Source: a candidate division NC10 bacterium CSP1-5 (GTDB lineage Bacteria; Methylomirabilota; Methylomirabilia; Methylomirabilales; CSP1-5). Taken from it: a DNA stretch of 64,000 nt. Of the stretch, positions 1,494 through 47,231 are shown one piece after another. A program made the position numbers and the translations under genes. Where the stretch lies: the NCBI GenBank assembly GCA_001443495.1, contig LDXR01000017.1, forward strand, positions 2,384-66,383, given 5' to 3'. Every line of letters begins with the position of its first letter. Position 1 is the first letter of the stretch. Below the pieces are notes generated by a model. That model saw only the letters and a list, made by a program, of their open reading frames with translations, did not search any database and was not told the origin of the DNA.

Positions 1494-1620
1494 ACGGATT
1501 ACCGACTACCGATGACCGTTGACCGAAAGGGCGAGGGGTGGTATTTCTCGGTCGCGGGTCATCGGTTACAGATCGTCGGTGCACTCTCATTTGTCATCGG
1601 ACTACTGTCATCGGTCATCG
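1494..1620. repeat. heptamer array locus A (ACCGATG-type left arm, GTCATCG-type right arm, inverted)
   Basis: Left arm: ACGGATT ACCGACT ACCGATG ACCGTTG ACCGAAA (1494-1528). Core: GGGCGAGGGGTGG. Right arm: nine in-phase units at 1558-1620, four of them exact GTCATCG (1558, 1593, 1607, 1614). The array ends 15 nt before the alaC-like ATG. Confidence 0.9.
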
Positions 1621-1635
1621 AGTAAGGGGGGAATC

Positions 1636-2802
1636 ATGCATGACTTTGCACGGATGAAGCGACTGCCCCCCTACATCTTCAGCATCGTCAACGAGCTGAA
1701 GACCAAGGCGCGGGCGCGGGGAGAGGACATCATCGATTTCGGCATGGGGAACCCGGATCAGCCGACACCGAAGCATATCGTCGACAAGCTGTGTGATGCG
1801 GCCCGGAATCCGAGAAACCATCGCTACTCCGCCTCGCGAGGAATCACCAAGCTCCGGAAGGCGATCGCCGACTGGTACCGCCGCCGGTACAGCGTGGAGA
1901 TCGATCCCGACACCGAGGCGATCGCCACTATCGGAGTCAAGGAGGGGATTTCCCATCTTGCCCTGGCGATCGTGGAACGGGGAGATGTGGCGTTGGTCCC
2001 GAGTCCGACCTATCCCATTCATGCCTATTCGGTGGTGATTGCGGGCGGCGATGTCCGGAACGTCCCCCTGGGACCGGGGATCGACTTCTTCGAGAAGCTG
2101 CAGGAGGCCTACAAGGGGTGCTGGCCGCCGCCCAAGCTCCTCATGGTGAGCTTTCCCCACAACCCCACGACCCAGGTGGTGGACCTCGCCTTCTTCACCA
2201 AGCTGGTCGAGTTCGCCAAAGCGCACGGTTTGATCGTGATCCACGACTTTGCCTACGCCGACCTCACCTTCGACGGATACCGGGCCCCGAGCTTTCTCGG
2301 GGTGCCGGGAGCGCGCGAGGTCGGGGTAGAGTTCTTCAGCCTCTCGAAGAGTTACAACATGCCGGGGTGGCGGGTCGGCTTCGCCGTCGGGAACCGACAG
2401 ATCATCGCCGCGTTAGCCCAGATCAAGAGCTATCTGGATTACGGCCATTTCCAGCCGATACAGATTGCCTCCATCATTGCGCTGAACGGTCCGCAGGATT
2501 GCGTGGACGACATCGTGGCGATGTACAGGGCCCGACGGGACGTGCTGGTGACCGGGCTGAACCGGCTCGGTTGGCCCTGTGAAAAGCCGCTGGGGACCAT
2601 GTTTGTCTGGGCCAAGATCCCGGAGGCCTACCGGGCCATGGGCTCCCTGGAGTTTTCGAAGTTCCTGCTAGAAAAGGCCAAGGTGGCGGTCTCACCCGGG
2701 ATCGGGTTCGGCAACCTGGGGGACGAGTATGTGCGCTTTGCCCTGGTGGAGAATCAACACCGGACCCGTCAGGCGCTCCAGGGGATCAGGCGGGCGCTCT
2801 GA
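1636..2802 (+). CDS. alaC: class I PLP aminotransferase, AlaC/YfdZ-like alanine aminotransferase
   Basis: ATG 1636 is preceded by AAGGGGGG. N-terminus [28 protein letters not shown] and the PLP-lysine region [15 protein letters not shown] match the AlaC pattern. The track start at 1519 reads through the heptamer array and is not credible. Confidence 0.85.
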
Positions 2803-2858
2803 GCGGAGGACGGCCTTTGCCCCTTGCCAGGCGCAGGGACGTTCGGTATAGTGAAGAC

Positions 2859-4274
2859 ATGAGCGTTGAGCGAGACAAGTTCCGGGACGAGTGCGGCGTC
2901 TTCGGCATCTACGGGCATCCGGAGGCGGCTAATCTCACCTATTTGGGCCTCTACGCCTTGCAGCACCGCGGCCAGGAATCGGCGGGGATCGCCTGTTCGG
3001 ACGGGAAGACGATCCATGTGGAAAAGGCGATGGGCCTGGTGGCCGACGTCTTCACCGAGGCGCGCCTCCGGCGGCTGCCGGGTGATATCGCCATCGGACA
3101 CGTCCGCTATTCCACCACCGGGTCGAGCCAACTCAAGAATGCCCAGCCCTTTTTCGCGGGCACCCATCGGGGCTCCCTGGCGCTCGGTCACAACGGCAAC
3201 CTGGTCAACGCCATGAGGGTCCGGGCCGAACTCGAGGCTCGGGGATCCGTCTTCAGCTCGACATCCGACACCGAGGTCATCCTGCATCTGATCGCCCGCT
3301 CTCAGGCCGATAGCTTGATCGATGCGGCCGCCGCGGCGCTATCAGACCTCCACGGGGCCTACTCCTTGGTCCTGATGAACGAGGGACAGCTTCTCGGGAT
3401 CCGCGACCCCCGAGGCTTCCGTCCCCTCTCCCTGGGCCGGATCAAGGAGGGCTATGTGCTTGCGTCAGAATCCTGCGCCTTTGACCTGATCGGGGCGACC
3501 TTCGTGCGGGATGTGGATCCCGGAGAGTTTCTCTTGATCGATCAGAGCGGACTGCACTCGTATTTCCCGCTGCCGGTGACCTCCCCCGCCATGTGCATCT
3601 TTGAGCACGTGTACTTTGCACGCCCCGACAGCCTGGTCTTTGGCCAGCACGTCTCTCGAGTCCGGAAAGAGCTGGGACGCCGCCTGGCGCAGGAGGCCCC
3701 CGCCGACGCGGATATCGTCGTTCCCGTCCCCGATTCCGGGATGTACGCCGCCCTGGGCTATGCCCAGGAGGCGGGTCTTTCCTATGAGCAGGGGATGGTG
3801 CGAAACCACTACGTGGGCCGGACCTTCATCGAGCCCAAGGGCTCCATCCGGCACTTCGGTGTCAAGGTCAAGCTCAACGCCGTGCGCGAGGTCCTGGAGG
3901 GGAAGCGGGTCGTGGTGGTGGATGACTCCATCATCCGCGGAACGACGAGCCGAAAGATCGTCGCCATGCTCCGGGCGGCCGGGGCCCGGGAGGTCCATAT
4001 GCGGGTCAGCTCTCCGCCCACGAGCTGGCCATGCTACTACGGCATCGATACCCCGACCCGCCGGGAGCTCATTGCTTCGTCACACACGGTGGATGAGATT
4101 CGGAGGTACGTCGGGGCCGATTCCTTGGCGTACCTCAGCCTCAAGGGCCTCCTGGAAGCCGTGGGCAAGGATGACGGGTACTGTGCAGCCTGCTGGACCG
4201 GCCGATATCCCGTGGAGTTTCCGGGCCAGGGGGTGCGGCAGTTGAACCTCTTCGAGCATCGCGAACGCGCATAG
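2859..4274 (+). CDS. purF: amidophosphoribosyltransferase
   Basis: ATG 2859, a short propeptide, then the Ntn cysteine CGVFGIYGH. PRTase loop [14 protein letters not shown]-terminal Cys pattern [15 protein letters not shown]. Confidence 0.95.
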
Positions 4275-4283
4275 GAGAGAAAG

Positions 4284-11388: not shown

Positions 11389-14151
11389 GTGAGCGAGCGG
11401 AGTGGCCACGGCTACGATCCTCGCGATGTGGAGCCCCGCTGGTACGCCCTCTGGGAACGTCAGGGCTTCTTCCACGCCGATCCTGGCTCCCCACGGGCTC
11501 CCTATACCATCGTCATTCCCCCTCCGAACATCACCGGCTCCCTCCACATGGGGCACGCGCTGAACAATACTCTCCAGGATGTTCTCATCCGGTGGCGCAG
11601 AATGGCGGGCGATAACACCCTGTGGATGCCCGGGACGGATCATGCGGGCATCGCGACCCAGAACGTGGTAGAGCGTCAGCTGCTCGCCGAGGGACTCACC
11701 CGACAGCAGATCGGACGGGAGGCCTTCGTCGCCCGGGTCTGGCGGTGGCGGGAGCAGTCGGGAGGGACCATCATCAACCAGCTTAAGAAGCTGGGGGCCT
11801 CCTGCGACTGGGTCCGCGAAGTCTTTACCATGGATGGGCCACGCCAGAAGGCGGTGCTGGAAGTCTTTGCCCGTCTCTGGGAGGATGGGCTCTTGTACCG
11901 GGCGGAGCGGCTGGTGAACTGGTGCCCGCGCTGCGAAACCGCGCTGGCCGATATCGAGGTCGTGCATGAGGAGATCGACGGCACCCTGTGGCACATCCGG
12001 TATCCCTTCGCGGCGGATCCCAAGAGTGGAGTGGTGGTCGCCACCACGCGGCCCGAGACGATGCTGGCGGACACGGCCGTCGCCGTGCACCCGGAGGACC
12101 CCCGCTATGCGAAGGCTGTCGGCAAGCACGTCATCCTCCCGCTGGTGGGCCGGAAGCTGCCCGTGATCGCGGATCCATATGTGTCGCGCGAGTTCGGGAC
12201 CGGAGCCCTCAAGATCACTCCCGGCCACGACTTCAACGACTCCGAGATGGGCCAACGGCACGGTCTGCGCGTCATCGCTACCCTCTTGCCGGACGGAACG
12301 CTGAATGAAGAGTTCCTCACCGACGCCAGCGGGGAGGTGCGCCAACGCCTGCAGCCGCTGATTGGTCTGGACCGCTTCGAAGTCCGGCGGAGGGTGCTTG
12401 ATGACCTCCGCCGAGAGGGCGTCCTGCTCAAGGAGGAGCCGTACCGGTACGCATTGGGCCGGTGCTATCGGTGCCAGACTGTCGTCGAGCCGTTCCCCAC
12501 GCCGCAATGGTTCATCCGGACGAAGCCGCTGGCCGAGCCGGCCATCCGCGTGGTCGAAGAGGGCCGCGTGCGCATCATCCCGCCGCAGTGGGAAAAAAAC
12601 TACTTCGAGTGGATGCAAAACATCAAGGACTGGTGCATCTCCCGGCAAATCTGGTGGGGGCACCAGATTCCGGCCTGGTACTGCGGGTCGTGCGATGTCG
12701 GCAATATCGTTCCGGCTGCAGAGGGAGGATATTCCATCGGCCGCGACGCCCGGCCGATCGTGGCCCGCGAGAGGCCGACAGGGTGTCCGCGCTGCGGGGG
12801 CCAGGAGCTCGTGCAAGATCCCGACGTCCTCGACACCTGGTTCAGCTCCGCCCTCTGGCCCTTCTCGACCCTCGGCTGGCCGGAGCAGACCAAGGAGCTG
12901 CAGGTCTTTTACCCCACGACCGTTCTGGTCACCGCGTTTGACATCCTCTTCTTTTGGGTCGCGCGGATGATCATGATGGGGCTGAAATGCATGGAGGACG
13001 TCCCCTTCCACCAGGTCTATATCCATGCCCTGGTCCGGGATCCGGAGGGGCAGAAGATGTCCAAGTCCAAGGGGAACGTCATCGACCCGCTCGTCGTGAT
13101 CGAGCGGTACGGCGCCGACGCCCTGCGATGTACCCTCACCGCCCTGATTGCCCAGGGACGAGATGTCAGGCTCTCGGAAGAACGGATCGAGGGGTATCAA
13201 CACTTCTGTAACAAGATCTGGAACGCCTTTCGCTTCGTGGGTCTCCATCTCAGTCCGGACGATGCCGAGGCCCTCAAGAGGGAAGGGCCGCCGCCCCCGG
13301 CGGACCTTGCAGATCGGTGGATCGTGAGCCGCCTGCAGGAGGTGATTGCGTCGGTGACCCAGGCGTTGGAGACCTTCCGGTTCAGCGATGCCGCCTCCCA
13401 CCTCTATCAGTTCCTCTGGCACGAGTATTGCGACTGGTATCTGGAGTTCGTCAAGGTCAGGCTCACCACGGACGGAGACCAAGCAGCGGCCAGGACCGGT
13501 CGTCTCCTCCTGGTCCATGTGTTGGAGGTGTCGCTCAGGCTGCTGCATCCCATCATGCCCTTTATCACCGAGGAGATCTGGCAGCATCTGCCCCATCCGT
13601 CGGGAGCTCCCTCGAGCGTGATGATCGCCCCCTGGCCCGTTGCAGAGCCGTCCCGTGTTGATCCGGAGGCCGTGCGAAAGATGGACCGGGTCATGGCAGT
13701 GATCCGGGCCATCCGGAACATCCGATCCGAGGTGCGGATTCCAACCAATGCCTCGCCGATGGTACTGGTGAAGATCGGGCAAGAGGAGGATGCGTCACTC
13801 CTCGCAAGCGCTGAGACCTACGTTCGGCAGTTAGCCCGGGCGAGGGAGGTGCGGGTCGGGCGGACCCTCGAGCGGCCCCGCCGTTCAGCGGTAGCCGTAA
13901 CTGCCGGGATGGAGATCTACATCCCCCTCGAGGGGCTGATCGATATCGCAGCGGAGGCGCAGCGCGTCGACCGAGAGCTCCAGAAGGTAGCACAGGAGCT
14001 CGAGCGGGTGAACCGCAAGCTCAGCAACAGAGACTTTCTCGCCCGGGCACCGGCAGAGGTGGTGGCCAAGGAGCGGGAGACCCAGCGGGAGTTGGGGGAG
14101 GCCTCGGAGAAACTCGCGAGGCACCTCGGCGTGCTGCGAGATGAACGGTAA
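11389..14151 (+). CDS. valS: valine--tRNA ligase
   Basis: GTG 11389 follows GGAGG. PPPNITGSLHMGHAL (HIGH), KMSKSKGN (KMSKS) and a C-terminal coiled coil are present. Confidence 0.95.
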   Translation: MSERSGHGYDPRDVEPRWYALWERQGFFHADPGSPRAPYTIVIPPPNITGSLHMGHALNNTLQDVLIRWRRMAGDNTLWMPGTDHAGIATQNVVERQLLAEGLTRQQIGREAFVARVWRWREQSGGTIINQLKKLGASCDWVREVFTMDGPRQKAVLEVFARLWEDGLLYRAERLVNWCPRCETALADIEVVHEEIDGTLWHIRYPFAADPKSGVVVATTRPETMLADTAVAVHPEDPRYAKAVGKHVILPLVGRKLPVIADPYVSREFGTGALKITPGHDFNDSEMGQRHGLRVIATLLPDGTLNEEFLTDASGEVRQRLQPLIGLDRFEVRRRVLDDLRREGVLLKEEPYRYALGRCYRCQTVVEPFPTPQWFIRTKPLAEPAIRVVEEGRVRIIPPQWEKNYFEWMQNIKDWCISRQIWWGHQIPAWYCGSCDVGNIVPAAEGGYSIGRDARPIVARERPTGCPRCGGQELVQDPDVLDTWFSSALWPFSTLGWPEQTKELQVFYPTTVLVTAFDILFFWVARMIMMGLKCMEDVPFHQVYIHALVRDPEGQKMSKSKGNVIDPLVVIERYGADALRCTLTALIAQGRDVRLSEERIEGYQHFCNKIWNAFRFVGLHLSPDDAEALKREGPPPPADLADRWIVSRLQEVIASVTQALETFRFSDAASHLYQFLWHEYCDWYLEFVKVRLTTDGDQAAARTGRLLLVHVLEVSLRLLHPIMPFITEEIWQHLPHPSGAPSSVMIAPWPVAEPSRVDPEAVRKMDRVMAVIRAIRNIRSEVRIPTNASPMVLVKIGQEEDASLLASAETYVRQLARAREVRVGRTLERPRRSAVAVTAGMEIYIPLEGLIDIAAEAQRVDRELQKVAQELERVNRKLSNRDFLARAPAEVVAKERETQRELGEASEKLARHLGVLRDER

Positions 14152-14160: not shown

Positions 14161-14254
14161 CGCTAAGCTGTCAGCGGTCAGCCGTCGGCTGTCAGCAATT
14201 TCCGGAGGGGAAATGGTATCCGTGCGGACTGCCGATAGCTGCCAGCCGACAGCT
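14161..14254. repeat. heptamer array locus B (CTGTCAG-type arms, inverted)
   Basis: Left arm: CGCTAAG CTGTCAG CGGTCAG CCGTCGG CTGTCAG (14161-14195). Core: AATTTCCGGAGGGGAAATGG. Right arm: GACTGCC GATAGCT GCCAGCC GACAGCT (14227-14254). The array ends 2 nt before the coaX ATG. Confidence 0.9.
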
Positions 14255-14256: not shown

Positions 14257-15029
14257 ATGGTAGCTATGTTGCTCGCGATCGACATCGGCAACACCAACAT
14301 CGTGCTCGGGCTCTTTCGGGAGCGGGAGCTCTTGCACCATTGGCGCGTCGGCACGCGGCGGGACGGCACAGCCGACGAGTACGGGATTCTTCTCAAGAAT
14401 CTCTTCGAGGTGGTGGGGATCCATCCCTCCGCTGTGAGCGGCGTGATCATCGCATCGGTGGTCCCGCCGCTCCAGCCCGTCTTTGAAGAGTTGACCAGCG
14501 CCCACTTCCGTTTGGGTCCGGTCGTGGTGGGACCCGGGATCCGGACCGGGATGCCCATCCTCTACGACAATCCGCGCGAGGTGGGGGCGGACCGCATCGT
14601 GAATGCGGTCGCGGCCTATGAGACGTACGGCGGCCCGGCGATCGTGGTCGATTTTGGCACGGCCACCACGTTCGATGCGATCTCCGCAAAGGGAGAGTAT
14701 CTCGGGGGCGTGATCGCGCCCGGAATCGGGATATCGGCTGAGGCCCTCTTTGAGCGGGCCGCCAAGTTGCCGCGGGTTGAAATCGTGCGCCCCAAAGCGG
14801 TCATTGGGAAGAATACCGTGGGCAGCATGCAGTCGGGCCTGTTCTACGGATATCTCAGTCTCGTGGACGGGATTGTGCGCCGGATGGTCCAGGAGATGGA
14901 GCGGGAACCGGCGGTCATCGGCACGGGCGGCCTGGCCCATCTGATCCTGGCGAGTCCGAGACGGTCCAGCACATTGACGCCTTCCTCACCCTCAAGGGCC
15001 TCCAGATCGTCTACGACCGCAACCGCTAA
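14257..15029 (+). CDS. coaX: type III pantothenate kinase, reading frame interrupted near 14947-14952
   Basis: N-terminus [16 protein letters not shown] and [11 protein letters not shown] are in the frame of ATG 14257. The canonical C-terminus [25 protein letters not shown] sits in another frame (14952-15029). The track ORF instead runs to 15096 with a low-complexity S/P/R/T tail. Confidence 0.8.
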
Positions 15030-16518: not shown

Positions 16519-17214
16519 ATGGGACGTCCGTTACGTGCCGCTGTCGGCGGCGTGATCTACCACGTGTTGAACCGGGCGAATGGCGGGCTGCAGCTCTTTG
16601 AGAAAGCCGGGGACTACGGGGCGTTCGAGCGGGTCTTCGAGGAGGCTCACGAGCGGATCCCGATGCGGACCCTAGCGTATTGCCTCATGCCGAATCATTG
16701 GCATCTGGTGCTGTGGCCACGGCGTGACGGCGACCTCTCGCAGTTTCTGGCGTGGGTGACGCTGACGCACACGCAACGCTGGCATGCGCACCGCAAGACG
16801 ACGGGCCAGGGGCATGTGTACCAGGGCCGGTTCAAGGCATTTCCTCTGCAAAGGGATGAGCATTTCCTGGCAGTATGCCGGTATGTGGAGCGGAATCCCT
16901 TGAGGGCGGGGTTCGTAGTGAGAGCCGAAGAGTGGCGGTGGTCAAGCCTGTGGTGGCGGAGGGCTGGCGCCGCTTCGAAGCGGCGCTGGTTGGCCGAGTG
17001 GCCTATTCCACGGCCAGCGCGGTGGGTGAACTGGGTGAACGAGCCGCAGACGGGCACGGAACTTGAAGCACTGCGCCGGTGTGTCACGCGGGGGCAGCCC
17101 TTCGGCTCGGAGGCATGGGTGCGGCGCACGGCGCTCCGCTTGGGCCTCGAAGTGACGTTACGCCCTCGCGGGCGCCCGACAAGGGAGGGTAGGGGGCCAC
17201 GAAAAGGTTCCTGA
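16519..17214 (+). CDS. REP-associated tyrosine transposase (IS200-like Y1 HUH family)
   Basis: HUH motif in LMPNHWHLVLWP and the catalytic Tyr region CRYVERNPLRAG. 231 aa. Confidence 0.85.
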   Translation: MGRPLRAAVGGVIYHVLNRANGGLQLFEKAGDYGAFERVFEEAHERIPMRTLAYCLMPNHWHLVLWPRRDGDLSQFLAWVTLTHTQRWHAHRKTTGQGHVYQGRFKAFPLQRDEHFLAVCRYVERNPLRAGFVVRAEEWRWSSLWWRRAGAASKRRWLAEWPIPRPARWVNWVNEPQTGTELEALRRCVTRGQPFGSEAWVRRTALRLGLEVTLRPRGRPTREGRGPRKGS

Positions 17215-20839: not shown

Positions 20840-20916
20840 GACGACGGATGACCGATAGTGACTGGTGGCTAACCACGACGTATGAACCCTGAACCCTGAA
20901 CCATGAACCATGAACG
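20840..20916. repeat. heptamer array locus C (GATGACC-type merging into NTGAACC x5)
   Basis: In-phase units GACGACG GATGACC GATAGTG ACTGGTG GCTAACC ACGACGT, then ATGAACC CTGAACC CTGAACC ATGAACC ATGAACG. The argJ ATG at 20903 is the start of the fourth TGAACC unit. Confidence 0.9.
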
Positions 20917-26125: not shown

Positions 26126-27681
26126 CGACGGTACGAGAGAGCCCTCTCGCTTGGCGCCTGATGGTCTCGCGGGGAGGCCTGGCCGCCTTGAGCGGCGTTC
26201 TCCTTGCACTGAGCTTTCCCAAGTTTGACTTGGCCCCTCTCGCCTTCGTGGCCCTCATCCCCCTCCTGGTGGGGCTGGACGGCGTCTCTGCCCTGCAGGG
26301 CATGTATCTGGGGATCATCGCAGGGGTAGTCTTCTCGCTCATGAGCGTCCCCTGGGTCGTTCATACGATGACCACGTACGGAGGGCTCCCCGTCCCTCTC
26401 GGTGTCGTGCTTCTTGTCGCACTTTCCCTCTACCTTGCGCTCTACGTGGGGGTCTTTGCGTTCGGGGTCACGCGACTGTCACCCGAAAGCGGTCTCGTGT
26501 ATCTCGTGGGCGCTGCGACTCTATGGGTCGGCCTCGAATATCTGCGTACCTTCCTCCTGACCGGCTTTCCCTGGAATCTCCTGGGGTATACCCAGTACAG
26601 GAGCCTTTCGATCATCCAGATCGCATCAATCACAGGCGTATACGGGGTCTCATTTCTCTTGGTCCTGGTCAATGCCGCGGTGGCGCTGGCCTGCCTTCAC
26701 GTGCGACAGAGCGCGCGGCAGGCCTTGATGCCTGTGCTGGGGGTGGGCGTGCTCCTGATCGGGGCAGTGGTGTTCGGCATGGGACGGAGGGTGTCGGCAG
26801 AGATCCCCCGCAGGGAGATCCGGGTATCGGTCGTCCAGGGGAATATCGAGCAGGGGATCAAGTGGGACCCGGGATTCGCGGGCCGGACGATCGGCATTTA
26901 TGATCGTCTGACCCGCAGGGCAGACCGGGGGTCGGACCTCATCGTGTGGCCAGAGACCGCCGTTCCTTTTTTCCTCCGGGAGGGGGGGCCGTTGACACGA
27001 CGGGTCCTCGACCTCGCGATGGAGGCGCAGGCGCATCTCTTGGTCGGAAGCCCGGATCGCGAGAGCGACGCCTCGCCTCGCTACTACAACAGCGCCTTCC
27101 TCATCTCGCCGGCGGGGGAGATTGTGCAGAAATATGATAAGATGCATCTGGTCCCCTTTGGGGAATACGTTCCGTTATCATCGCTCCTCTTTTTCGTGCA
27201 CAAAATGGCGACCGGGATCGGCGATTTTAGCGCCGGAGAGACGTTCACGGTCTTCGAGACCCCGGGCGGACGCTTTGGGGTTCTGATCTGCTTTGAAACC
27301 ATCTTTCCCGATCAGGTTCGCCGGTACGTTCTCGCCGGGGCCGACTTCCTGGTGAATATCACCAATGACGCCTGGTTCGGGGACTCCGCCGCCCCGTATC
27401 AGCATCTGAGTATGGCTGCGCTGCGGGCGGTGGAAAACGGGGTCTACTTGGTGCGGGCGGCGAACACCGGGATCTCCGCCCTGGTCGCCCCGTCGGGCCA
27501 GATCCTGGAGCAGTCAGACCTCTTTGTCGAGGCCGTCCTGTCGGCAACGATGGCTCCCCGGCCAGGGGGAACGTTCTATACGAGACGCGGGGATCTGCTC
27601 GCCTGGAGCTCTGTTCTCATCAGCCTCTTCCTCCTGGCCTTTAGGAGGCGGACGGGGCGCAAGGAAAGGAGGACACGATGA
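26116..27681 (+). CDS. lnt: apolipoprotein N-acyltransferase
   Basis: N-terminal polytopic domain plus a CN-hydrolase domain (VWPETAVPF, KMHLVPFGEYVP, LICFETIFPD). Confidence 0.9.
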   Translation: MDLATVRESPLAWRLMVSRGGLAALSGVLLALSFPKFDLAPLAFVALIPLLVGLDGVSALQGMYLGIIAGVVFSLMSVPWVVHTMTTYGGLPVPLGVVLLVALSLYLALYVGVFAFGVTRLSPESGLVYLVGAATLWVGLEYLRTFLLTGFPWNLLGYTQYRSLSIIQIASITGVYGVSFLLVLVNAAVALACLHVRQSARQALMPVLGVGVLLIGAVVFGMGRRVSAEIPRREIRVSVVQGNIEQGIKWDPGFAGRTIGIYDRLTRRADRGSDLIVWPETAVPFFLREGGPLTRRVLDLAMEAQAHLLVGSPDRESDASPRYYNSAFLISPAGEIVQKYDKMHLVPFGEYVPLSSLLFFVHKMATGIGDFSAGETFTVFETPGGRFGVLICFETIFPDQVRRYVLAGADFLVNITNDAWFGDSAAPYQHLSMAALRAVENGVYLVRAANTGISALVAPSGQILEQSDLFVEAVLSATMAPRPGGTFYTRRGDLLAWSSVLISLFLLAFRRRTGRKERRTR

Positions 27682-28785
27682 CGGTCGAACTCGGTAAGCG
27701 ACTCGAGACGGCGGTGGCGAAAATCCAAAACCTCTGGGCCTATCTTTGACCTGCCGGCGAAGGCACAGCGGGCTACACAGTTAGAGCAGATCGCCCAGGG
27801 CCCTGACTTTTGGAAGGAACCGGATCGAGCCCAGCGGCTTCTCAGGGAGCTCGGGGAGCTGAAGGAGACACTGTCACTCCACACTGCGCTCAGGAGTGAG
27901 GTCGAAGATCAGCGAACGCTGTTGGAACTGGCCCGGGAGGCGGACGATGAGGAGGCCCTCAAGGAGGTCGAGGGAGCGGTCAAGACGTTGGAGCAACGGA
28001 TCAGCGATCTAGAGCTCCGCGCGGTCCTCTCTGGCCCACACGACCGGGGCAATGCCATCCTCTCGATCAATCCGGGGGCGGGCGGGACCGAGTCCCAGGA
28101 CTGGGCCCAGATGCTGCTGCGGATGTACGCGCGCTGGTGCGACGGCAGAGGCTTCAAGACGCAGATCCTCGATCTCCAGCCGGGGGAGGAAGCGGGGATC
28201 AAGGGGGCGGTCGTTTCTGTCGTCGGTCCCTATGCGTACGGCACCCTCAAGGCCGAGGTGGGGGTTCATCGGCTCGTGCGGATTTCACCCTATGATGCCA
28301 GCCACCGACGGCACACCTCCTTTGCCTCGGTGGCGGTCCTGCCCGAGGTGGAGGAGGTCGAGGTCGTGATTAACGAGAAGGACCTGAAGATCGAGACCTT
28401 CCGGGCGAGCGGGCATGGGGGACAACACGTGAACGTGACCGACTCGGCCGTCCGGATCACCCACCTCCCGACCGGGACCACAGTCTCGTGCCAGAATGAG
28501 CGTTCCCAGCACAAGAACAAGGCCCTCGCCATGAAGGTGCTCCGATCCCGACTGTATGAACATTTCCGGGAGAAACAGGAGCGGGAGATGCAGGCGTTGG
28601 CCGGTGAAAAAAAGGAGATCGCCTGGGGATCGCAGATTCGATCCTATATCCTCGCGCCGTATCAGCTCGTGAAGGACCATCGCACAGGCGTGGAGACGGG
28701 GAACGTCGAGGCGGTGCTGAGTGGGGCGATCGATCCTTTCGTGAACGCCTATCTGTTTCAGCCCGCTCGCCGCCTTTCACCTTGA
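27678..28785 (+). CDS. prfB: peptide chain release factor 2, requires a +1 programmed frameshift at 27744-27750
   Basis: ATG 27678 (ATGA overlap with the lnt stop, AAGGAAAGGAGG upstream). Frame 0 gives MTVELGKRLETAVAKIQNLWAYL, then the in-frame TGA. The +1 frame continues DLPAKAQRATQLEQI.. into track ORF 27922-28785, which carries the GGQ motif (SGHGGQHVN). Confidence 0.9.
27741..27750 (+). other. RF2 autoregulatory +1 frameshift site TAT CTT TGA C
   Basis: Identical to the canonical slippery/stop context CUU UGA C of bacterial prfB. Confidence 0.9.
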
Positions 28786-39367: not shown

Positions 39368-40168
39368 ATGTCTCGGATCGGGATCATTGCGGGCTCCGGT
39401 CCCCTTCCCCTCTTGGCCGCCCGTGAGGCCAAGGCGGCCGGGCGGATGGTGACCGTGGTCGCCATCCGCGAAGAGGCGGACCCCGCGGTCGAGGCGGTGG
39501 CGGATCGCCTCCACTGGGTCGGAGTCGGCCAACTGGGGGCGCTCATCCGGGCTCTGAAGCGCGATGGGGTGAGCGAGGCCATCATGGTCGGCAAGGTGCG
39601 GATGAGTCACCTCTTCAGCCAGGTCCGTCCGGATGTCCGGGGAGCGCTACTCTATCTCCGCCTGAAGGATCGCCGGGGCGATTCCATCATGGAAGCGGTA
39701 GCCCAGGAGCTCGAGCGCGCCGGGATCACCCTCCTCGAGTGTACCCGGTTTCTGGCTGGGGTCTTGGTCGAAAAGGGGGTCCTGACCCGGCGGGCTCCGA
39801 CGGAGCGGGAATGGGAGGACATTCGATTCGGTCGGGAGGTCGCAAGCACCCTGGCGCACGTGAAGGTCGGGCAGACGGTGGTGGTAAAGCACGGCGCGGT
39901 CCTCGCGGTCGAAGCGGTCGAGGGGACCGACGCCGCGGTGCGGCGAGGGGGGGAGCTGGGACGGGAAGGGGTGGTGGTCGTCAAGGTGTGCCGGCCCCAG
40001 CACGATTTTCGGTTTGATGTCCCCGTCATCGGCCCGATGACCATTGCGGTGCTGCGCGAGGTGCGAGGGACGGCGCTGGCGGTAGAGGCGAACCGCACCC
40101 TGCTCCTGGATCGGGAACAGACCCTTGGTCTCGCGGATGAGGCCGGCATCGCGGTCGTGGCCGACTGA
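39368..40168 (+). CDS. lpxI: UDP-2,3-diacylglucosamine hydrolase, LpxI type (DUF1009)
   Basis: IGIIAGSGPLPLLAAREAK..VGQTVVVKHGAVLAVEAVEGTDAAVRRGG..FDVPVIGPMTI. It sits between lpxA and lpxB, as LpxI genes do. Confidence 0.8.
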   Translation: MSRIGIIAGSGPLPLLAAREAKAAGRMVTVVAIREEADPAVEAVADRLHWVGVGQLGALIRALKRDGVSEAIMVGKVRMSHLFSQVRPDVRGALLYLRLKDRRGDSIMEAVAQELERAGITLLECTRFLAGVLVEKGVLTRRAPTEREWEDIRFGREVASTLAHVKVGQTVVVKHGAVLAVEAVEGTDAAVRRGGELGREGVVVVKVCRPQHDFRFDVPVIGPMTIAVLREVRGTALAVEANRTLLLDREQTLGLADEAGIAVVAD

Positions 40169-40171
40169 GAG

Positions 40172-40201
40172 GGTTCAGAGTTGAACTATGAACCCTGAAC
40201 G
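40172..40201. repeat. heptamer array locus E (short: GGTTCAG .. TTGAACT ATGAACC CTGAACG)
   Basis: GTTCA-GAGT-TGAAC mini-hairpin, then two TGAAC units. The oxidoreductase ATG at 40188 begins the ATGAACC unit. Confidence 0.85.
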
Positions 40202-41135
40202 AAAGATACGGGTGGCGGTCATCGGGGTGGGGCATGTGGGTCAGCACCACGCCCGGATCTACCGGGAACTCCCTGGAGCCGAGCTGGTCGGCGTCGTCGA
40301 CATCGATCGCGCTAAGCTCCAGGAGTTGAGCGAATCCCTGGGCGTGGCCGCATGTGAGGATTACCGGGATATGTTCGGCCGGGTGGACGCCGTCAGCGTC
40401 GCCGTCCCCACGGTTCTCCACGCCCCTATCGCCCGCGACTGTCTGGAGCGCGGCCTTGACGTCCTCGTCGAAAAGCCCCTGGCCGAAACCTTGGAAGAGG
40501 CGGAGGAACTCACGGATCTGGCCAGGCGACGGGGACGGATTCTCCAGGTGGGCCATGTGGAGCGGTTTAACGGGGCGGTCCGCGCTCTTCAACGGATGGT
40601 CAAGGCGCCGGGTTTCATTGAGTGTCATCGCCTCAGTCCCTTCCCGCAGCGTAGCACCGATGTGGACGTGATCCTCGATCTCATGATCCACGATATCGAC
40701 ATCATCCTCAGCCTGGTGAAGTCTCCGGTCACCCAGGTGCGCGCGGTCGGGGTGCCGGTCCTGACCGATCGCGTGGACATTGCCAATGCCAGGATTGAGT
40801 TCGCGTCAGGATGTGTGGCCAACGTGACCGCCAGCCGGGTGAGCGTTGAACGCGTCCGCAAGATCCGCGTCTTTCAGCCGGACACGTATATCTCCCTCGA
40901 CTATGCGAGTCAAGAGATCAGCCTCTACCGTCGCCTGCCGGGAAACCCTACGTTTCATCCCCCCCAGCCTCCCCGGATCGTCAGGGAGGAGGTGGTCGTC
41001 GAGAAAGAAGAACCCCTCCGCCTACAGCTCGCGAGCTACCTCAGGTCGGTCCGGGAGCGGACGCGGCCAGAGGTCTCGGGGGAAGAGGCGGTAGAGGCTC
41101 TCCGGGCCGCGTCCCAGATCCTGGCCAAAATTTGA
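40188..41135 (+). CDS. Gfo/Idh/MocA family NAD(P)-dependent oxidoreductase
   Basis: Rossmann N-terminus VAVIGVGHVGQHHARIY and the family motif LVEKPLAETLEEA. The start codon lies inside the heptamer array. Confidence 0.85.
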   Translation: MNPERKIRVAVIGVGHVGQHHARIYRELPGAELVGVVDIDRAKLQELSESLGVAACEDYRDMFGRVDAVSVAVPTVLHAPIARDCLERGLDVLVEKPLAETLEEAEELTDLARRRGRILQVGHVERFNGAVRALQRMVKAPGFIECHRLSPFPQRSTDVDVILDLMIHDIDIILSLVKSPVTQVRAVGVPVLTDRVDIANARIEFASGCVANVTASRVSVERVRKIRVFQPDTYISLDYASQEISLYRRLPGNPTFHPPQPPRIVREEVVVEKEEPLRLQLASYLRSVRERTRPEVSGEEAVEALRAASQILAKI

Positions 41136-41137: not shown

Positions 41138-42295
41138 ATGAATAAGAAAATATTCATCGTGGCCGGGGAGGCCTCCGGAGACCTCCACGCCGCCGATCTC
41201 GCGCGGGCCCTCCTCTCCCTCGACCCGGAGGTCACCCTCTTGGGGATGGGGGGGGAACAGATGCGGCGGGCTGGTGTCACCCTTCACGTCGATGCCGGCG
41301 AGTTGGCCGCCGTCGGGATCACCGAAGCACTCTCGGGCATTGTGGCGGTCCTGCGCGCCTTGGCACGGCTCCGGTCGGCCCTCGACGCGGAAAATCCCGC
41401 CCTCCTCCTCCTGATCGACTTCCCCGATTTCAATTTTTGGTTGGCGCGGGCTTCCCGACGGAGGGGGATTCCGGTGCTGTACTATATCAGCCCGCAGGTC
41501 TGGGCCTGGCGCAAAGGGAGGATCCGGACGCTGAAGCGGCTGGTGAAAAAGATGCTGGTCATCTTCTCCTTTGAGGAGGTCCTGTATCGCCAGGCGGGGG
41601 TTCCCGTCACTTTTGTCGGCCACCCCATGCTGGACCGTCTGCGAGACATTCCGAGTCGAGAAGAGGCTCGTCGCCGCATGGGGTATGATCCTTCGGATCG
41701 GATCATTGGCCTCCTCCCGGGGAGCCGTGAGGGAGAGGTCCGACACCACCTCCCGGTTCTCAAAGCGGCCGCTGCCCAGATTGTTCAAGCTGAGCCCCCG
41801 GTCCGGTTTCTTCTGGGTGTGGCCGATTCACTCCCCCCGCGACTGGTCGAGACGCTCCTTCAGGGGAGTGATTTACCGATTCGACTGCTCCGAGGCCAGA
41901 CGTACGAGATCATGCGAGCGGCAGACCTGGTGATCGCGGCATCGGGAACGGCGACACTCGAGGCAGGGCTTCTCGGGACCCCCATGGTCATCATCTATCG
42001 GGTCTCCCGTCTCACTTGGTGGGTGGGCAGGCTCTTGGTGGATGTTCCCGCCGTAGGGATGGTAAACTTAGTTGCAGGAAGGCGCGTGGTACCCGAGCTG
42101 CTGCAGTGGGACTGTACCCCTGAGCGGGTGGCCAAGATCGCCCTGGAGCTCTTGCAGAGCCCTGAGGCCCTTGGGTCGATCCGTGAGGAGCTCCAGAAGA
42201 TTCGGAGAAAGCTCGGAGAGGAGGGGGCCTCTCTTCGCGCAGCCCGGGAGGTCCTCAAGACGCTGTATGAGGTGGAGGCCAGGAGTCGGAGGTGA
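41138..42295 (+). CDS. lpxB: lipid-A-disaccharide synthase
   Basis: ATG 41138. KIFIVAGEASGDLHAADLARAL..YISPQVWAWRKGRI. Confidence 0.9.
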   Translation: MNKKIFIVAGEASGDLHAADLARALLSLDPEVTLLGMGGEQMRRAGVTLHVDAGELAAVGITEALSGIVAVLRALARLRSALDAENPALLLLIDFPDFNFWLARASRRRGIPVLYYISPQVWAWRKGRIRTLKRLVKKMLVIFSFEEVLYRQAGVPVTFVGHPMLDRLRDIPSREEARRRMGYDPSDRIIGLLPGSREGEVRHHLPVLKAAAAQIVQAEPPVRFLLGVADSLPPRLVETLLQGSDLPIRLLRGQTYEIMRAADLVIAASGTATLEAGLLGTPMVIIYRVSRLTWWVGRLLVDVPAVGMVNLVAGRRVVPELLQWDCTPERVAKIALELLQSPEALGSIREELQKIRRKLGEEGASLRAAREVLKTLYEVEARSRR

Positions 42296-43023
42296 AGCGA
42301 GCCTGGAAGGGTCTTCGGACCAATCCGGTTGTCATCGCCGTCCTCACCCGGCTGGTGGTGTTCCTGCTCGGGGGTCTCTTCCGGTCCCTGCGAATGAGCT
42401 ATGTGGGGCGCGAGGTGCTCGACGAAATTATCCGCGCCGAGGGGAGACGGGTCATGGCAACTTTCTGGCATGGCCGGCTCCTCATGATGCCCTTTGCGTA
42501 TCGTGAAGGTCCGTGGGCAATTATGGTGAGTCGACACCCGGATGCGGAGGTTATCAGCCGGGTGGCAGAGCGATTCGGCATTCAACCGGTACGGGGTTCG
42601 GCCCGCCGAGGCGGTGCCCGGGCCCTTCGCGGGATGGTGCGAGCCTCCCGAAGAGGGTATCATCTGGCGATCACCCCAGATGGGCCTCTCGGCCCGAGGG
42701 AGCAGGTGAAGACCGGAACGATCGAGCTCGCCCGGCTGGCTGGGACCCCGATCATTCCGATGGCCTTTGCCGCGTCGCACGGAAGGTTCGAGCGCAGTTG
42801 GGACCGGCTTCTGATCCCGTATCCCTTTGGCCGGGGGGTGTTTGTGTACGGAGAACCGGTCGTGGTTTCTCCGACGGCCGGCCCCGAGGAGGTGGAGAAG
42901 GCGCGCGCCGTCCTCGAGGAGGGTCTTCGTCAGGTGACGGCGGTGGCTGATGCGTACTTCAAAGAATCAGCAGTCGGCCATCAGCCATCAGCCGTCGGCG
43001 CAAGATCCGAGAGGAGCCTTTGA
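42292..43023 (+). CDS. DUF374 / lysophospholipid acyltransferase-like protein
   Basis: GTGA overlap with lpxB. ATFWHGRLLMMP..HPDAEVISRVAERFG..PDGPLGPRE. The last ~19 codons are encoded by the heptamer array. Confidence 0.8.
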   Translation: MKRAWKGLRTNPVVIAVLTRLVVFLLGGLFRSLRMSYVGREVLDEIIRAEGRRVMATFWHGRLLMMPFAYREGPWAIMVSRHPDAEVISRVAERFGIQPVRGSARRGGARALRGMVRASRRGYHLAITPDGPLGPREQVKTGTIELARLAGTPIIPMAFAASHGRFERSWDRLLIPYPFGRGVFVYGEPVVVSPTAGPEEVEKARAVLEEGLRQVTAVADAYFKESAVGHQPSAVGARSERSL

Positions 43024-43045
43024 TGCTGACTGCTGATCGCTGAAA
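42966..43045. repeat. heptamer array locus F (ATCAGCC/GTCGGCC left arm, GCTGAYN right arm, inverted)
   Basis: Left arm: ATCAGCA GTCGGCC ATCAGCC ATCAGCC GTCGGCG (42966-43000). Core contains GAGAGGAG. Right arm: GCTGACT GCTGATC GCTGAAA (43025-43045). The direct repeat ATCCGAGAG occurs at 43005-43013 and 43045-43053. Confidence 0.9.
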
Positions 43046-45421: not shown

Positions 45422-45442
45422 CGGAATGGGCGAGAGGCGGCG

Positions 45443-46522
45443 ATGAGGGTGATCGAGCGGACGGGGGTCGATCCAGCCGGGGTTCGCCGGATCCTGATCC
45501 GGGGAGTGAACTGGGTCGGCGACGCGGTGATGACCACGCCTGCCATCGCCGGCATCCGCAAGACCTTCCCTCGCGCGCAGATCTCTCTCCTCGTGAAGCC
45601 GTGGGTTGCCGGGGTCTTTGCGGGGAACCCACACATCGACGAGATACTCATCTACGACGGGGAAGGCCGTCACAGGGGCGTAACAGGACTCCTCCAGCTG
45701 GCCCGAGAGCTTCGGGAGTCCCGGTTCGAACTGGCCATCCTGCTTCAGAACGCCTTTGAAGCGGCCCTCCTTGCCTTCCTAGCCAGAATCCCCCACCGAA
45801 TTGGCTACAACACCCAGGGGAGGGGTCTGCTCCTGACCACGGCGGTGGCTCAGGATCGATCGACGAGAAAGCTTCATTACGCCGACTACTACCTGGCTCT
45901 CCTTGGCGCGCTCGGGTGGGCACAGGAAAAGCGCGAGCCGTCCCTATTTCTCAGCAGCCAAACGGAGGAGCGGGCCGAGGCCTTGCTCGCGGAGGAGGGG
46001 GTGGGGCCGCAGGACACCCTTGTGGCCTTCAATCCCGGCTCGATCTATGGCTCGGCCAGGCGCTGGCCCGAGGAGCGGTTCGCAGCGCTGGCCGATCGCC
46101 TGGTCGAGGACCTCGGGGTAAAGGTACTTCTTACCGGGGCGAAAGTCGACGGGGCGGTGGCGAGGGCGGTTCGGTCGTATGCCCGCTATCCACAGCATGT
46201 GATTGACCTGATCGGCCGAACGGACATTCAGCTTCTGGCGGCGGTGCTGAGACGCTGCGCTGTCTTTGTGACTATCGATACAGGGTCGATGCACATCGGC
46301 GCAGCCGTGGGCGTTCCGCTGGTGGCGATCTTTGGACCGACCAATGAGAAGACCGCCTTTCCGCTGGGAAGGCACGTGCTCCTCAGGCATCCGGTCCCAT
46401 GCAGCCCCTGCCTTCTGAGAGAATGCCCGATTGACCACCGGTGCATGACTGGGATTTCAGTGGATCAGGTTTTATCCTCTGTAATAGGTGTTTATGACTT
46501 TAATGATAAAGTTGTACATTAA
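45443..46522 (+). CDS. waaF: glycosyltransferase family 9 (ADP-heptose:LPS heptosyltransferase, WaaF-like)
   Basis: ILIRGVNWVGDAVMTTPAIAGIRKTFP..FVTIDTGSMHIGAAVGVPLVAIFGPT. The last ~16 codons are unusually AT-rich. Confidence 0.85.
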   Translation: MRVIERTGVDPAGVRRILIRGVNWVGDAVMTTPAIAGIRKTFPRAQISLLVKPWVAGVFAGNPHIDEILIYDGEGRHRGVTGLLQLARELRESRFELAILLQNAFEAALLAFLARIPHRIGYNTQGRGLLLTTAVAQDRSTRKLHYADYYLALLGALGWAQEKREPSLFLSSQTEERAEALLAEEGVGPQDTLVAFNPGSIYGSARRWPEERFAALADRLVEDLGVKVLLTGAKVDGAVARAVRSYARYPQHVIDLIGRTDIQLLAAVLRRCAVFVTIDTGSMHIGAAVGVPLVAIFGPTNEKTAFPLGRHVLLRHPVPCSPCLLRECPIDHRCMTGISVDQVLSSVIGVYDFNDKVVH

Positions 46523-46535
46523 GTTGTGACACCAA

Positions 46536-47105
46536 ATGATAAGGGGCTCGCCGGCAGTCTTTCTCGATCGAGACGGGACCATCAACGAGGACTCAGGGTA
46601 TCTGGCTGATCCTTCGGGCCTCCGACTTTTGTCGGGGGCCGGGCTGGGGCTCCGGCTGCTTCAGGAGGGGGGCTTTCGGCTGGTGGTGGTGAGCAACCAA
46701 TCGGGGATCGCCCGGGGGTATTTGACGGAAGCAAGGCTTGCCGAGATCCACCAAAGGCTCGAGAGCCTGCTTGGGACAGAGGGGGTCACGTTGAGCGGCG
46801 TATATTACTGCCCCCACCACCCGGAGGGGGCTCCCCCGTTTCGACAGGTGTGTCATTGTCGCAAGCCTCAGGGGGGATTGGTGGAGCGCGCGGCGCGGGA
46901 GCACAAAATTGACTTGAGCCGCTCGTATGTCGTCGGAGACCAGCTCGTCGATATCGAGCTGGCGCGGCAGTCGGGGATGACGGCCATCCTCGTGCTTACC
47001 GGGCAGGGGAGGCTCGCGTTAGAGTCGGGAACCGTTGAGGCGGATCATGTCGCCACCGATCTCGCGGCCGCGGCCCGTTGGATTCTCGGGAGGCACGTCG
47101 GATGA
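46536..47105 (+). CDS. gmhB: D-glycero-D-manno-heptose 1,7-bisphosphate phosphatase
   Basis: HAD motifs VFLDRDGTIN and VVVSNQSGIARG. Zn-binding pattern CPHHP..CHCRKP. Confidence 0.85.
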   Translation: MIRGSPAVFLDRDGTINEDSGYLADPSGLRLLSGAGLGLRLLQEGGFRLVVVSNQSGIARGYLTEARLAEIHQRLESLLGTEGVTLSGVYYCPHHPEGAPPFRQVCHCRKPQGGLVERAAREHKIDLSRSYVVGDQLVDIELARQSGMTAILVLTGQGRLALESGTVEADHVATDLAAAARWILGRHVG

Positions 47106-47135
47106 GCCAACAGGATATCCGGGCGCTGCGAAGAA

Positions 47136-47231
47136 GGTTCACGGTTCAGGGTTCATAGTTCATAGACGGAGATGGGAGAGGAATGGTTGGTCCGCCATTG
47201 ACCATGAACCACCAACCATGAACCCCGAACG
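47136..47231. repeat. heptamer array locus G (GGTTCAN x4, inverted ATGAACC-type x4)
   Basis: Left arm: GGTTCAC GGTTCAG GGTTCAT AGTTCAT (47136-47163). Core contains GGGAGAGGA. Right arm: ATGAACC ACCAACC ATGAACC CCGAACG (47204-47231). The Memo-like GTG is 9 nt downstream. Confidence 0.9.

Follow-up and report, generated by a model that had tools for sequence, protein, structure and literature searches.

Rapidly varying heptanucleotide repeat arrays with hairpin potential between co-directional genes of a candidate division NC10 bacterium

Introduction

Tandem arrays of seven-nucleotide units have reportedly been known since 1990, from the short tandemly repeated repetitive (STRR) sequences of heterocystous cyanobacteria, and are said to have been recognised in 2007 as the commonest class of long simple sequence repeat (SSR) in bacteria. 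The STRR units are CCCCAGT, TTGGTCA and CAACAGT. Here we analyse such arrays in a stretch of 64,000 nt (the window; 62% G+C, with nearly all genes on the + strand) from the candidate division NC10 bacterium CSP1-5, of the Methylomirabilota. Seven spacers between same-strand genes of the window, loci A to G, contain in-phase 7-nt units, which at five loci form two arrays in inverted orientation that could pair into a long hairpin.

Intercistronic stem-loops are familiar from enterobacteria, where the repetitive extragenic palindromic (REP) sequences and the bacterial interspersed mosaic elements (BIMEs) are imperfect palindromes without a U tract, lying between cistrons or at 3' ends, whose transcribed stem-loops block 3' exonucleases. 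Those close to a stop codon affect translation of the upstream gene. Such effects on messenger RNA (mRNA) stability and on translation near stop codons were reportedly described by Newbury in 1987 and by Liang, Rudd and Deutscher in 2015. REP and BIME units are, unlike the NC10 repeats, 20-40 nt long, follow one genome-wide consensus, are moved by REP-associated tyrosine transposases (RAYTs) and contain no tandem heptamers, whereas the NC10 hairpins agree only in the unit and expand where they are.

Heptanucleotide repeats are the most abundant long-SSR class in most bacterial genomes and were proposed to result from polymerase slippage over about 7 nt, according to two later summaries of Mrazek 2007 (PMC4679880, PMC4692102). 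In Xanthomonas, two genomes carry 186 and 183 arrays of the type (GGGANTN)n, with 70 and 75 cases of convergent inverted pairs with stem-loop potential, and the arrays are mostly transcribed (PMC4692102). Like the NC10 arrays they are intergenic and consist of heterogeneous 7-nt units, usually about four, in which some positions are constant and others free; close species differ in array length and sequence but mostly retain the position and the single or paired type (PMC4692102). The Xanthomonas arrays, however, are a single G-rich family discussed mainly as a G-quadruplex former, whereas the NC10 units lack G tracts, come in several families that swap at one spacer, and have a stop-to-start geometry that is not reported for Xanthomonas.

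Geobacter metallireducens has four classes of 7-9-nt tandem repeat sites, mostly paired on opposite strands, at variable distance and absent from the sister species (PMC2700814). As in NC10, there are several classes per genome, with three to five tandem units (MTYCTGA five times, GTTGCTYN four times), placed between operon genes such as proB and proA; unlike in NC10, the unit is not always 7 nt, the sites were put forward as candidate binding sites of integration host factor (IHF), HU or a global regulator, and their description includes no comparison of populations or alleles (PMC2700814). Direct TAACTGA repeats occur in marine Beggiatoaceae, cyanobacteria and some Bacteroidetes, and a role in translation has been proposed for them (MacGregor 2015, PMC4679880). 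The Beggiatoaceae arrays share with those of NC10 a size of two to six heptamers, a mostly intergenic position, an orientation to the downstream gene and a unit containing CTGA; their commonest end point is 1 nt ahead of the start codon, and some run into the 3' end of the upstream open reading frame (ORF). They differ in being nearly all direct, with a single inverted case, in having one dominant unit, and in a suspected horizontal spread (PMC4679880). The STRR arrays, too, are intergenic and made of tandem 7-nt units in several families per genome (Mazel et al. 1990, as cited in PMC4692102), but they are long and direct, not typically inverted pairs, and belong to a different phylum. A preprint on Nostoc implicates heptamer repeats near start codons in expression.

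An earlier reading of the window, made by a model from the sequence alone (the original prediction), had offered the cyanobacterial STRR heptamers as the nearest analogue, which is an apt comparison, and had supposed the architecture to be undescribed, which it is not: heptamer SSRs, inverted pairs (Xanthomonas) and multi-class paired arrays (Geobacter metallireducens) are already published. We therefore present no new kind of element, and the value of the NC10 loci lies in their allele series and their geometry. Near-identical assemblies provide a natural experiment in which the same spacer appears with three or more hairpin designs and with visible gain and loss of whole units, and in which a reproducible stop-hairpin-start geometry accompanies a displaced ribosome-binding site in an organism that normally uses one.

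Results and Discussion

Phased heptamer arrays in seven spacers of the window

We built a gene map from ORFs and from gene calls on metagenome assemblies of the same loci, ran Tandem Repeats Finder (TRF) on the window, and called arrays at a lag-7 self-match score of at least 10, using 30 dinucleotide-preserving shuffles as the control. By this score the window holds six period-7 arrays, against a shuffle mean of 0.13 and a maximum of 1, an excess so far beyond chance that the arrays must be taken as real; the same scan found none in the window at periods 4, 5, 8, 9, 10 or 11. Lag-7 identity was 0.41-0.55 in the array spacers and about 0.2-0.35 elsewhere. TRF returned nine period-7 arrays, all with 0% indels (1497-1526, 14166-14196, 20882-20915, 23784-23809, 23825-23853, 23872-23895, 42966-42993, 47136-47165 and 47201-47224). 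Folded as single strands, the inverted loci gave long imperfect hairpins with z-scores of -2.3 (A), -4.5 (B), -3.5 (D), -2.7 (F) and -1.4 (G); the small hairpin at E (40170-40204) scored -3.9, and the direct array at C -0.7.

These results bear directly on what had been claimed for the window. All seven same-strand spacers contain in-phase arrays where the original prediction had put them, as judged by TRF and by reading the sequence, and the five loci it had named as inverted pairs with hairpin potential are those with the z-scores of -1.4 to -4.5. The GGAGG-type block that it saw directly 5' of the left arm of locus D is present. A more fitting division than its three unit types is one into about four related families, GGTCATC, GGTCAGC, GGTTCAN and GGTCCGA, with an array missing from its list (23784-23809) belonging to the last. 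The additional short traces that it noted at 22129, 48760 and 59364 can be seen as two-unit runs; by themselves they fall short of significance because of their length, and the third departs partly from phase.

An assembly or sequencing artefact, against which the original prediction had proposed comparison with shuffles and with independent assemblies, found no support in either, and we assign it next to no probability. Each of three regions of the window was recovered with the same arrays in at least 10 independent JGI/ENA metagenome assemblies, the variation between assemblies is coherent and in whole units, and homologous hairpins are present in related NCBI metagenome-assembled genomes (MAGs).

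The loci have the properties of the heptanucleotide long-SSR class (in-phase 7-nt units, an excess at that period, an extragenic position and a unit number that varies between strains), and five of them also have those of the paired heptamer arrays of the Xanthomonas and Geobacter metallireducens type, namely opposite-strand arrays able to form a stem-loop. That they are heptanucleotide SSR arrays, mostly inverted pairs, situated between cistrons and turning over in place by whole-unit changes, is firmly supported, and their identity as slippage-type heptamer SSR hairpins is very probable.

Several better known classes were considered and rejected, among them three (CRISPRs, canonical terminators and riboswitches) that had already been discounted and that remain excluded by anatomy, the absence of a U tract and the absence of an Rfam match, respectively. 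A CRISPR needs 23-50-nt direct repeats and unique spacers, whereas the units here are contiguous and 7 nt long. The proposed Rfam search was carried out, and because no Rfam 15 family matched anywhere in the window, at the gathering score or even at E <= 1, riboswitches and other curated RNA families can be set aside. No right arm is followed by a T run, while canonical U-tract terminators occur in the same window after rpsI, a response regulator gene and clpB, and this excludes Rho-independent terminators of the canonical kind. Cyanobacterial STRRs are excluded by the units, which here are those of the four families given above, and by the host, which is an NC10 bacterium and not a heterocystous cyanobacterium. 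Against REP/BIME elements, or their paired form (REPIN), there is no 20-40-nt consensus, the loci having only the 7-nt unit in common with unrelated loops and arm lengths, and the RAYT-like gene of the window (16519-17214) is flanked by a different, 13-nt repeat. A miniature inverted-repeat transposable element (MITE) was rejected on the lack of a common internal sequence and of duplications at allele boundaries. The window contains no tRNA.

Alleles of the same spacer differ by whole units and by unit family

To follow the arrays through time we compared the window with sequences of other assemblies and genomes, which are given L-numbers (L002, L007, L092, L111, L233 and others). Among assemblies 99.6-99.9% identical to the window, locus C has either four or five TGAACC units, and L092 is one ATCAGCC unit short at locus F. 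The latter loss shifts the frame of the DUF374 gene (42292-43045 in the window), whose stop codon becomes the next TGA in the right arm, giving a product of 245 aa as against 243 aa. The left arm and loop of locus F are part of the DUF374 reading frame, and the tail of the protein is accordingly repeat-encoded and variable.

Larger differences appear at only slightly greater distance. L002 and L007 have flanks 98.4-99.6% identical to the window and an identical PyrH, yet their spacers B and D differ from it. Between valS and coaX, L002 has a direct GCACCCT/GAACCCT array instead of the CTGTCAG hairpin. Between tsf and pyrH, it has three GTCCGAN units opposite three NTCGGAC units, while L007 has four GTTCATN opposite four ATGAACN and the window GTTCACN opposite GTGAACC. 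The left arms of the window and L007 differ at 8 of 29 positions, where about 0.3 would be expected at the divergence of the flanks, and the changes in the right arm match those in the left (GTTCAC/GTGAAC versus GTTCAT/ATGAAC). The arrays thus evolve far faster than their flanks.

Relatives at 90.6-93.8% identity provided further alleles. Every tsf-pyrH allele seen, over flank identities of 90.6-99.7%, contains a heptamer hairpin, of the GTCCGA family in L002, L111/L112, L235 and L240-243 and of the GTTCA family in the window, L007 and L233. Beside its newer GTTCA hairpin the window retains an old GTCCGAT array (23784-23809), a relic of the left arm of the GTCCGA/TCGGAC hairpin that takes up the spacer in the former group. 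The GGAGG block just 5' of the left arm (23820-23824) recurs as TTACGGAGG in the three GTTCA-type alleles and indicates that they have one origin; since this allele tree is at odds with the similarity of the flanks, recombination is indicated.

The argC-argJ spacer is equally varied, with a full hairpin of the locus A family in L233, one of the locus B/F family in L240 and a GTCGGAC composite in L111. The degenerate GATGACC-type part of locus C is the remnant of a left arm, to judge from L233, where the full hairpin (CCGATGA many times opposite four GGTCATC units) lies in the same spacer. The direct array of locus C evidently grew in place, because at the site of the window's five units L111 (91% identity) shows no more than the seed GTGAACCATGAACCGTGAA. 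Across all spacers the same few, related families recur, and the arms remain complementary even where the unit family at a spacer has been replaced.

Units would be gained and lost by replication slippage, and the two arms may owe their likeness to hairpin-templated copying (template switching), to selection for pairing, or to both. A different possibility is a mobile origin, with the RAYT-like tyrosine transposase of the window moving the hairpins as miniature elements of the REP/REPIN or MITE type. The presence of that gene, the swapping of unit families at a spacer, and the appearance of locus D, where the GTTCA hairpin looks inserted into an older GTCCGA hairpin, are all in keeping with transposition. 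However, hairpins of the same family have unrelated loops and lack both terminal repeats and target-site duplications. Arrays expand from seeds already present at the site, a repeat of another kind flanks the transposase gene, and the period-7 excess is found across phyla regardless of such genes, so that we consider this origin very unlikely.

Table 1. Positions and make-up of the heptamer array loci in the window.
Feature	Position	Strand	Description
Locus A	1494-1620	+	spacer argS / aminotransferase gene; inverted pair
A, left arm	1494-1526	+	about 4 units (A/T)CCGA(C/T)N, family GGTCATC/GATGACC; 3 nt past argS stop codon (1488-1490)
A, loop	1527-1556	+	GAGGGG block
A, right arm	1557-1620	+	9 in-phase GGTCATC units, middle degenerate
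Locus B	14161-14254	+	spacer valS / coaX; inverted pair
B, left arm	14161-14196	+	GCTGTCA / GCGGTCA / GCCGTCG / GCTGTCA; 9 nt past valS stop codon (14149-14151)
B, loop	14197-14225	+	GGAGGGG at 14205-14211; ATG at 14213
B, right arm	14226-14254	+	reverse complement of left-arm units; 2 nt ahead of coaX ATG 14257
Locus C	20840-20916	+	spacer argC / argJ; direct array, unpaired
C, degenerate part	20840-20881	+	GATGACC-type array
C, direct array	20882-20916	+	NTGAACC x5, without inverted partner; includes argJ ATG 20903
Locus D	23825-23895 (older array 23784-23809)	+	spacer tsf / pyrH; inverted pair
D, older array	23784-23809	+	GTCCGAT x3.7; includes tsf stop codon TAG 23795-23797
D, GGAGG block	23820-23824	+	directly 5' of left arm; only Shine-Dalgarno-like block upstream of pyrH
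D, left arm	23825-23853	+	GTTCACN x4
D, loop	23854-23871	+	
D, right arm	23872-23895	+	C(G/A)TGAAC x3; 11 nt ahead of pyrH ATG 23907
Locus E	40172-40201	+	spacer lpxI / GFO_IDH; mini hairpin GGTTCA-GAG-TTGAACT and two direct TGAAC units
Locus F	42966-43045	+	spacer DUF374 / kdtA; inverted pair
F, left arm	42966-43000	+	ATCAGCN / GTCGGCC units; within 3' end of DUF374 ORF
F, loop	43001-43023	+	GAGAGGAG; DUF374 stop codon TGA 43021-43023
F, right arm	43024-43045	+	(T/C)GCTGAN x3, TGA in all three frames; 16 nt ahead of kdtA ATG 43062
Locus G	47136-47231	+	spacer gmhB / Memo; inverted pair
G, left arm	47136-47165	+	GGTTCAN x4; 30 nt past gmhB stop codon (47103-47105)
G, loop	47166-47200	+	GGGAGAGGA
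G, right arm	47201-47231	+	NTGAACC-type x4, degenerate

The hairpins span the interval from stop codon to start codon

All seven array spacers lie between co-directional genes of the + strand, within apparent operons, and the arrays nearly fill them (Table 1). The distance from the preceding stop codon to the array is 3-9 nt at A, B and E, as against 30 nt at G, and the 3' ends of the arrays are 2-16 nt ahead of the next start codon or include it (argJ, GFO_IDH), which agrees with the predicted closeness to the downstream start. Coding sequence is touched in four genes only: tsf at its stop codon, DUF374 at its tail, and argJ and GFO_IDH at their first codons. Locus G conforms only if Memo starts at GTG 47241. 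Metagenome gene callers place a Memo-like start at ATG 47349 (231 aa). The Pfam Memo profile spans the 267-aa product from GTG 47241 (47241-48044) end to end, and because it covers only this longer product in full, we take the GTG as the start, whereby the array of locus G also abuts a start codon.

The position of the arrays affects the ribosome-binding region. With a Shine-Dalgarno site scored as present at <= -5 kcal/mol, 70% of the 50 other genes of the window have one, compared with three of the seven genes preceded by an array (Mann-Whitney P = 0.047). Such sites follow the right arms of A (AAGGGGGG, then the aminotransferase ATG at 1636) and G (GAGGG, then the GTG), and none lies between the right arm and the start codon of coaX or of pyrH. 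For pyrH and GFO_IDH the sole GGAGG-like block lies just 5' of the hairpin, so folding would bring the block near the ATG; at locus E this is a GAGAGG, the array beginning 3 nt past the lpxI stop codon (40166-40168) and including the GFO_IDH ATG at 40188.

Within the loops, the GGAG-like purine core of the original prediction is found in the NC10 loci as described (four of the five loops of the window hairpins; P about 0.05 as a rough estimate). At B and F the block is followed by an ATG, and reading of the sequence predicts a mini-ORF that crosses the right arm and stops at or near the next start codon. That of B runs from ATG 14213 for 16 codons to TAG 14261-14263, overlapping the coaX start region, and that of F from ATG 43023, overlapping the DUF374 TGA, for six codons to TGA 43041-43043. 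The purine core did not prove general: among 53 metagenome loops from the matches listed in the sample described next, a Shine-Dalgarno-like motif was found in 8 on the sense and 5 on the antisense strand, and we rejected it as a common feature.

We searched metagenomes with a query of three GTTCA units opposite three TGAAC units and obtained at least 120 loci (L113-L232), on contigs of 36-70% G+C and with unrelated loops. Among the matches listed, 57 hairpins lie between co-directional genes, by orientation calls that are rough, resting on the longest open frame 150 nt away. In 40 of these the array begins -1 to +17 nt from the upstream stop codon, and in about 28 the first in-frame ATG lies no more than 21 nt past the array, a distance often too tight for a Shine-Dalgarno site. 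In the hairpins, core unit positions are paired in 81-90% of units, position 6 in 73% and position 7 in 63%. The stem is accordingly a series of segments of about 6 bp with frequent but not obligatory mismatches, concentrated at the seventh unit position. Because pairing at that position persists in 63% of units, a strictly periodic mismatch holds only in part.

The reading that we prefer treats these hairpins as counterparts of the enterobacterial intercistronic stem-loops. The transcript would carry the hairpin, which could work like a REP/BIME-type element as a barrier or processing point in mRNA decay, and, because it occupies the ribosome-binding region, translation of the downstream cistron may come to depend on ribosomes completing the upstream one. 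It would then be neither a Rho-independent terminator nor a mobile element nor a structured RNA gene. This reading is favoured by the persistence of a hairpin at tsf-pyrH through a complete turnover of its sequence, by the fit between stop and start codons, by the displacement of Shine-Dalgarno sites and by the lack of U tracts. A REP-like function of the hairpins is nonetheless a tentative proposal, towards which we lean less than away from it; the statement as a whole, that these are slippage-driven heptamer SSR hairpins acting like REP-type intercistronic stem-loops, we regard as evenly balanced.

A more specific version, in which the hairpin is a translational coupling device in place of a Shine-Dalgarno site, we consider improbable. 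Here the foot of the hairpin would bring two codons together, the upstream stop codon lying 0-12 nt from its 5' arm and the downstream start codon 0-20 nt from its 3' arm. The latter arm would present TGA in all three frames, and ATGAACC units would add ATG codons. Ribosomes finishing the upstream gene, or the loop mini-ORF at B and F, would unwind the stem or pass over its foot and resume translation downstream, in a bacterial counterpart of shunting or of termination-reinitiation. A 7-nt period (7 = 1 mod 3) would have the advantage that every reading frame is closed by three units, and slippage of units would tune the coupling of cistrons in a heritable and reversible way.

The same geometry could also be that of non-canonical, bidirectional intrinsic terminators or attenuators which, without a U tract, set different transcript levels for neighbouring genes. 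Stable hairpins that begin at or just past stop codons, that abut both stop codons in convergent gene pairs, and that are located where stoichiometry changes (tsf-pyrH and the rpsB-to-tsf interval) would be expected of such elements. They are, however, followed by no U tract in a window that has textbook U-tract terminators. Their sites are inside conserved operons (rpsB-tsf-pyrH-frr; the lpx cluster), with the following start codon immediately adjacent; divergent gene pairs contain them as well, and they have no strand asymmetry. We give termination a rather small probability.

Strand, context and pairing tests

Returning to the proposed REP-like role, several results weigh against it. The Shine-Dalgarno deficit rests on seven genes. 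If the sense transcript were the object of selection, the sense strand might be expected to fold better, but in a strand test of eight window hairpins the sense strand did so at three and the antisense at four, with one tie, and across the 57 co-directional metagenome loci (matches listed) the sense strand was better in 30 and the antisense in 25 (Wilcoxon P = 0.5), with 106 G-U pairs on the sense and 82 on the antisense strand. Sense and antisense folding being equal, nothing marks selection on the sense transcript. Pairing itself is dispensable at locus C and in the L002 allele of valS-coaX, which have direct arrays only. As for context, 89 metagenome hairpins among the matches listed divide, by the same rough calls, into 57 co-directional, 16 convergent and 16 divergent; the divergent share is about that expected without preference, whereas a role at 3' ends or in coupling would predict fewer. 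Finally, arrays that expanded neutrally until they met coding sequence would fit the stop and start codons just as tightly. Three sense-strand U-G wobbles in the L233 allele are anecdotal, the window allele having a C-A.

The arrays may instead be a neutral mutational by-product, seeded from chance double units, extended by slippage up to coding sequence, with arms homogenised by template switching in quasi-palindromes, and tolerated in operon spacers. Fast turnover by whole-unit indels, the lack of sense/antisense asymmetry, the existence of unpaired arrays and of alleles that have lost pairing, the lack of depletion between divergent genes, and the invasion of the ends of tsf, DUF374, argJ and GFO_IDH all accord with neutrality. 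Less easily accommodated are the presence of the tsf-pyrH hairpin in all alleles over about 10% divergence while its sequence was replaced, the displacement of a Shine-Dalgarno region that 70% of other genes possess, and the recurrence of a small set of families. Strand symmetry, the dispensability of pairing and the absence of any context preference make neutrality a strong rival, and we judge it possible though on the unlikely side.

The distinction matters: arrays that do control operon coupling or decay would add a widespread means of setting gene dosage that can be tuned rapidly, whereas neutral arrays offer a striking view of replication slippage in bacteria advancing by a 7-nt step. The natural tsf-pyrH alleles make this old question testable.

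Occurrence across phyla and unit composition

As an unbiased control set we used 80 loci from a PyrH scan (L011-L090; 1.4 Mb from unrelated phyla at <= 69% identity), for which all counts refer to the matches listed. This cross-phylum sample contains 68 period-7 arrays, against 2-13 at each of periods 4, 5, 8, 10 and 11 and 27-32 at periods 6, 9 and 12, which are multiples of three and largely coding. An inverted partner lies within 150 nt of 25 of the 68, and of none of the 68 in the reversed-sequence control. The arrays come from Acidobacteriota, Nitrospirota, Thermodesulfobacteriota, Bacillota and Gammaproteobacteria, so the arrays are peculiar neither to this genome nor to its lineage, and the confinement to the window that the original prediction had allowed for does not apply; with NC10 added to these phyla the inverted-pair form is common across phyla and not peculiar to Xanthomonas or Geobacter. 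The excess at period 7 over many phyla also fits the property of the replication machinery proposed by Mrazek, and to that extent favours neutral expansion.

Two features of the sample point the other way. Heptamer arrays recur between rpsB and tsf matches, in 10 of 70 loci among those listed, mostly in Acidobacteriota and with different units. The composition of the units is also non-random: CTGA or TCAG is present in 20 of the 68 units where 5.4% would be expected, an enrichment of about five-fold, and in only 0-2 units at each of periods 6, 8, 9 and 12. GTCA and ACTG are common in these units as well, and the NC10 families all lie near GGTCAnC. A stop codon in the unit as a universal rule was tried and rejected: TGA or TCA is found in 24 of the 68 units, about twice a rough expectation of 17%, and CTGA/TCAG is the sharper signal. 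The shared CTGA/TCAG core could reflect a common constraint, such as an all-frame stop codon or a preference in binding or slippage. We met no mention of it in the heptamer-repeat literature consulted, and searches of the literature for the unit GTTCAAA/TTTGAAC returned nothing relevant.

A common core would also be expected if the arrays were binding sites of an oligomeric protein, with one unit per subunit, either on DNA (IHF/HU type) or on single-stranded RNA (a cold-shock-type oligonucleotide/oligosaccharide-binding (OB) fold). Six constant positions and one free at a fixed 7-nt spacing, the five-fold CTGA/TCAG enrichment with the frequent GTCA and ACTG and the closeness of the NC10 families to GGTCAnC, and published suggestions of IHF/HU for Geobacter and of OB-folds (about 7 nt each) for Beggiatoaceae are consistent with this idea. 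On the other hand, several families in one genome swap at the same spacer without visible consequence, copy number is unconstrained, and the contigs of the GTTCA hairpins (655 kb, matches listed) contain 118 further period-7 arrays of which 88 belong to other families. On balance, a protein-binding role seems distinctly improbable.

Arrays elsewhere can be longer than those of the window. Among a gammaproteobacterial MAG (L071, 9796-9938) and L196, L197 and L188 there are arrays of 10 or more perfect AGTTTTC units opposite ACTGAAC, of 19 GTTCAGC/GTTCTCC units and of 26 CTGTGAA/CTATGAA units. With 10-26 units in such arrays, expansion can far exceed the three to five units seen in NC10.

Other features of the window

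The tyrosine transposase gene mentioned above (16519-17214) encodes a Y1 protein of 231 aa that matches the REP-associated model NF047646 at 70.8 bits, below its cutoff of 80. Upstream of it lies GGCGGAAAAAGGTG, and downstream, as its reverse complement, are five CACCTTTTCCGCC-like copies, three of them exact; as these flanking repeats differ from the heptamer arrays, a RAYT-like transposase was rejected as the driver of the arrays. The segment 16453-17276 is a variable island, L002 having a tetratricopeptide repeat (TPR) gene there instead. An extra Amidohydro_2 gene (278 aa), at about 51.8 kb between the Patatin and LMWPc genes, is present in L091-L094 and L098 and missing from the window, L095-L097 and L099.

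The release factor 2 (RF2) gene prfB (27678-28785) has the classical programmed +1 frameshift site, CTT TGA C, at 27744-27750. Its ORF0, which encodes MTVELGKRLETAVAKIQNLWAYL, starts at ATG 27678 and overlaps the lnt stop codon (ATGA). Because of this ORF0 and the frameshift site, the 240-nt spacer and the TTG start at 27922 that appear for prfB in gene calls are wrong.

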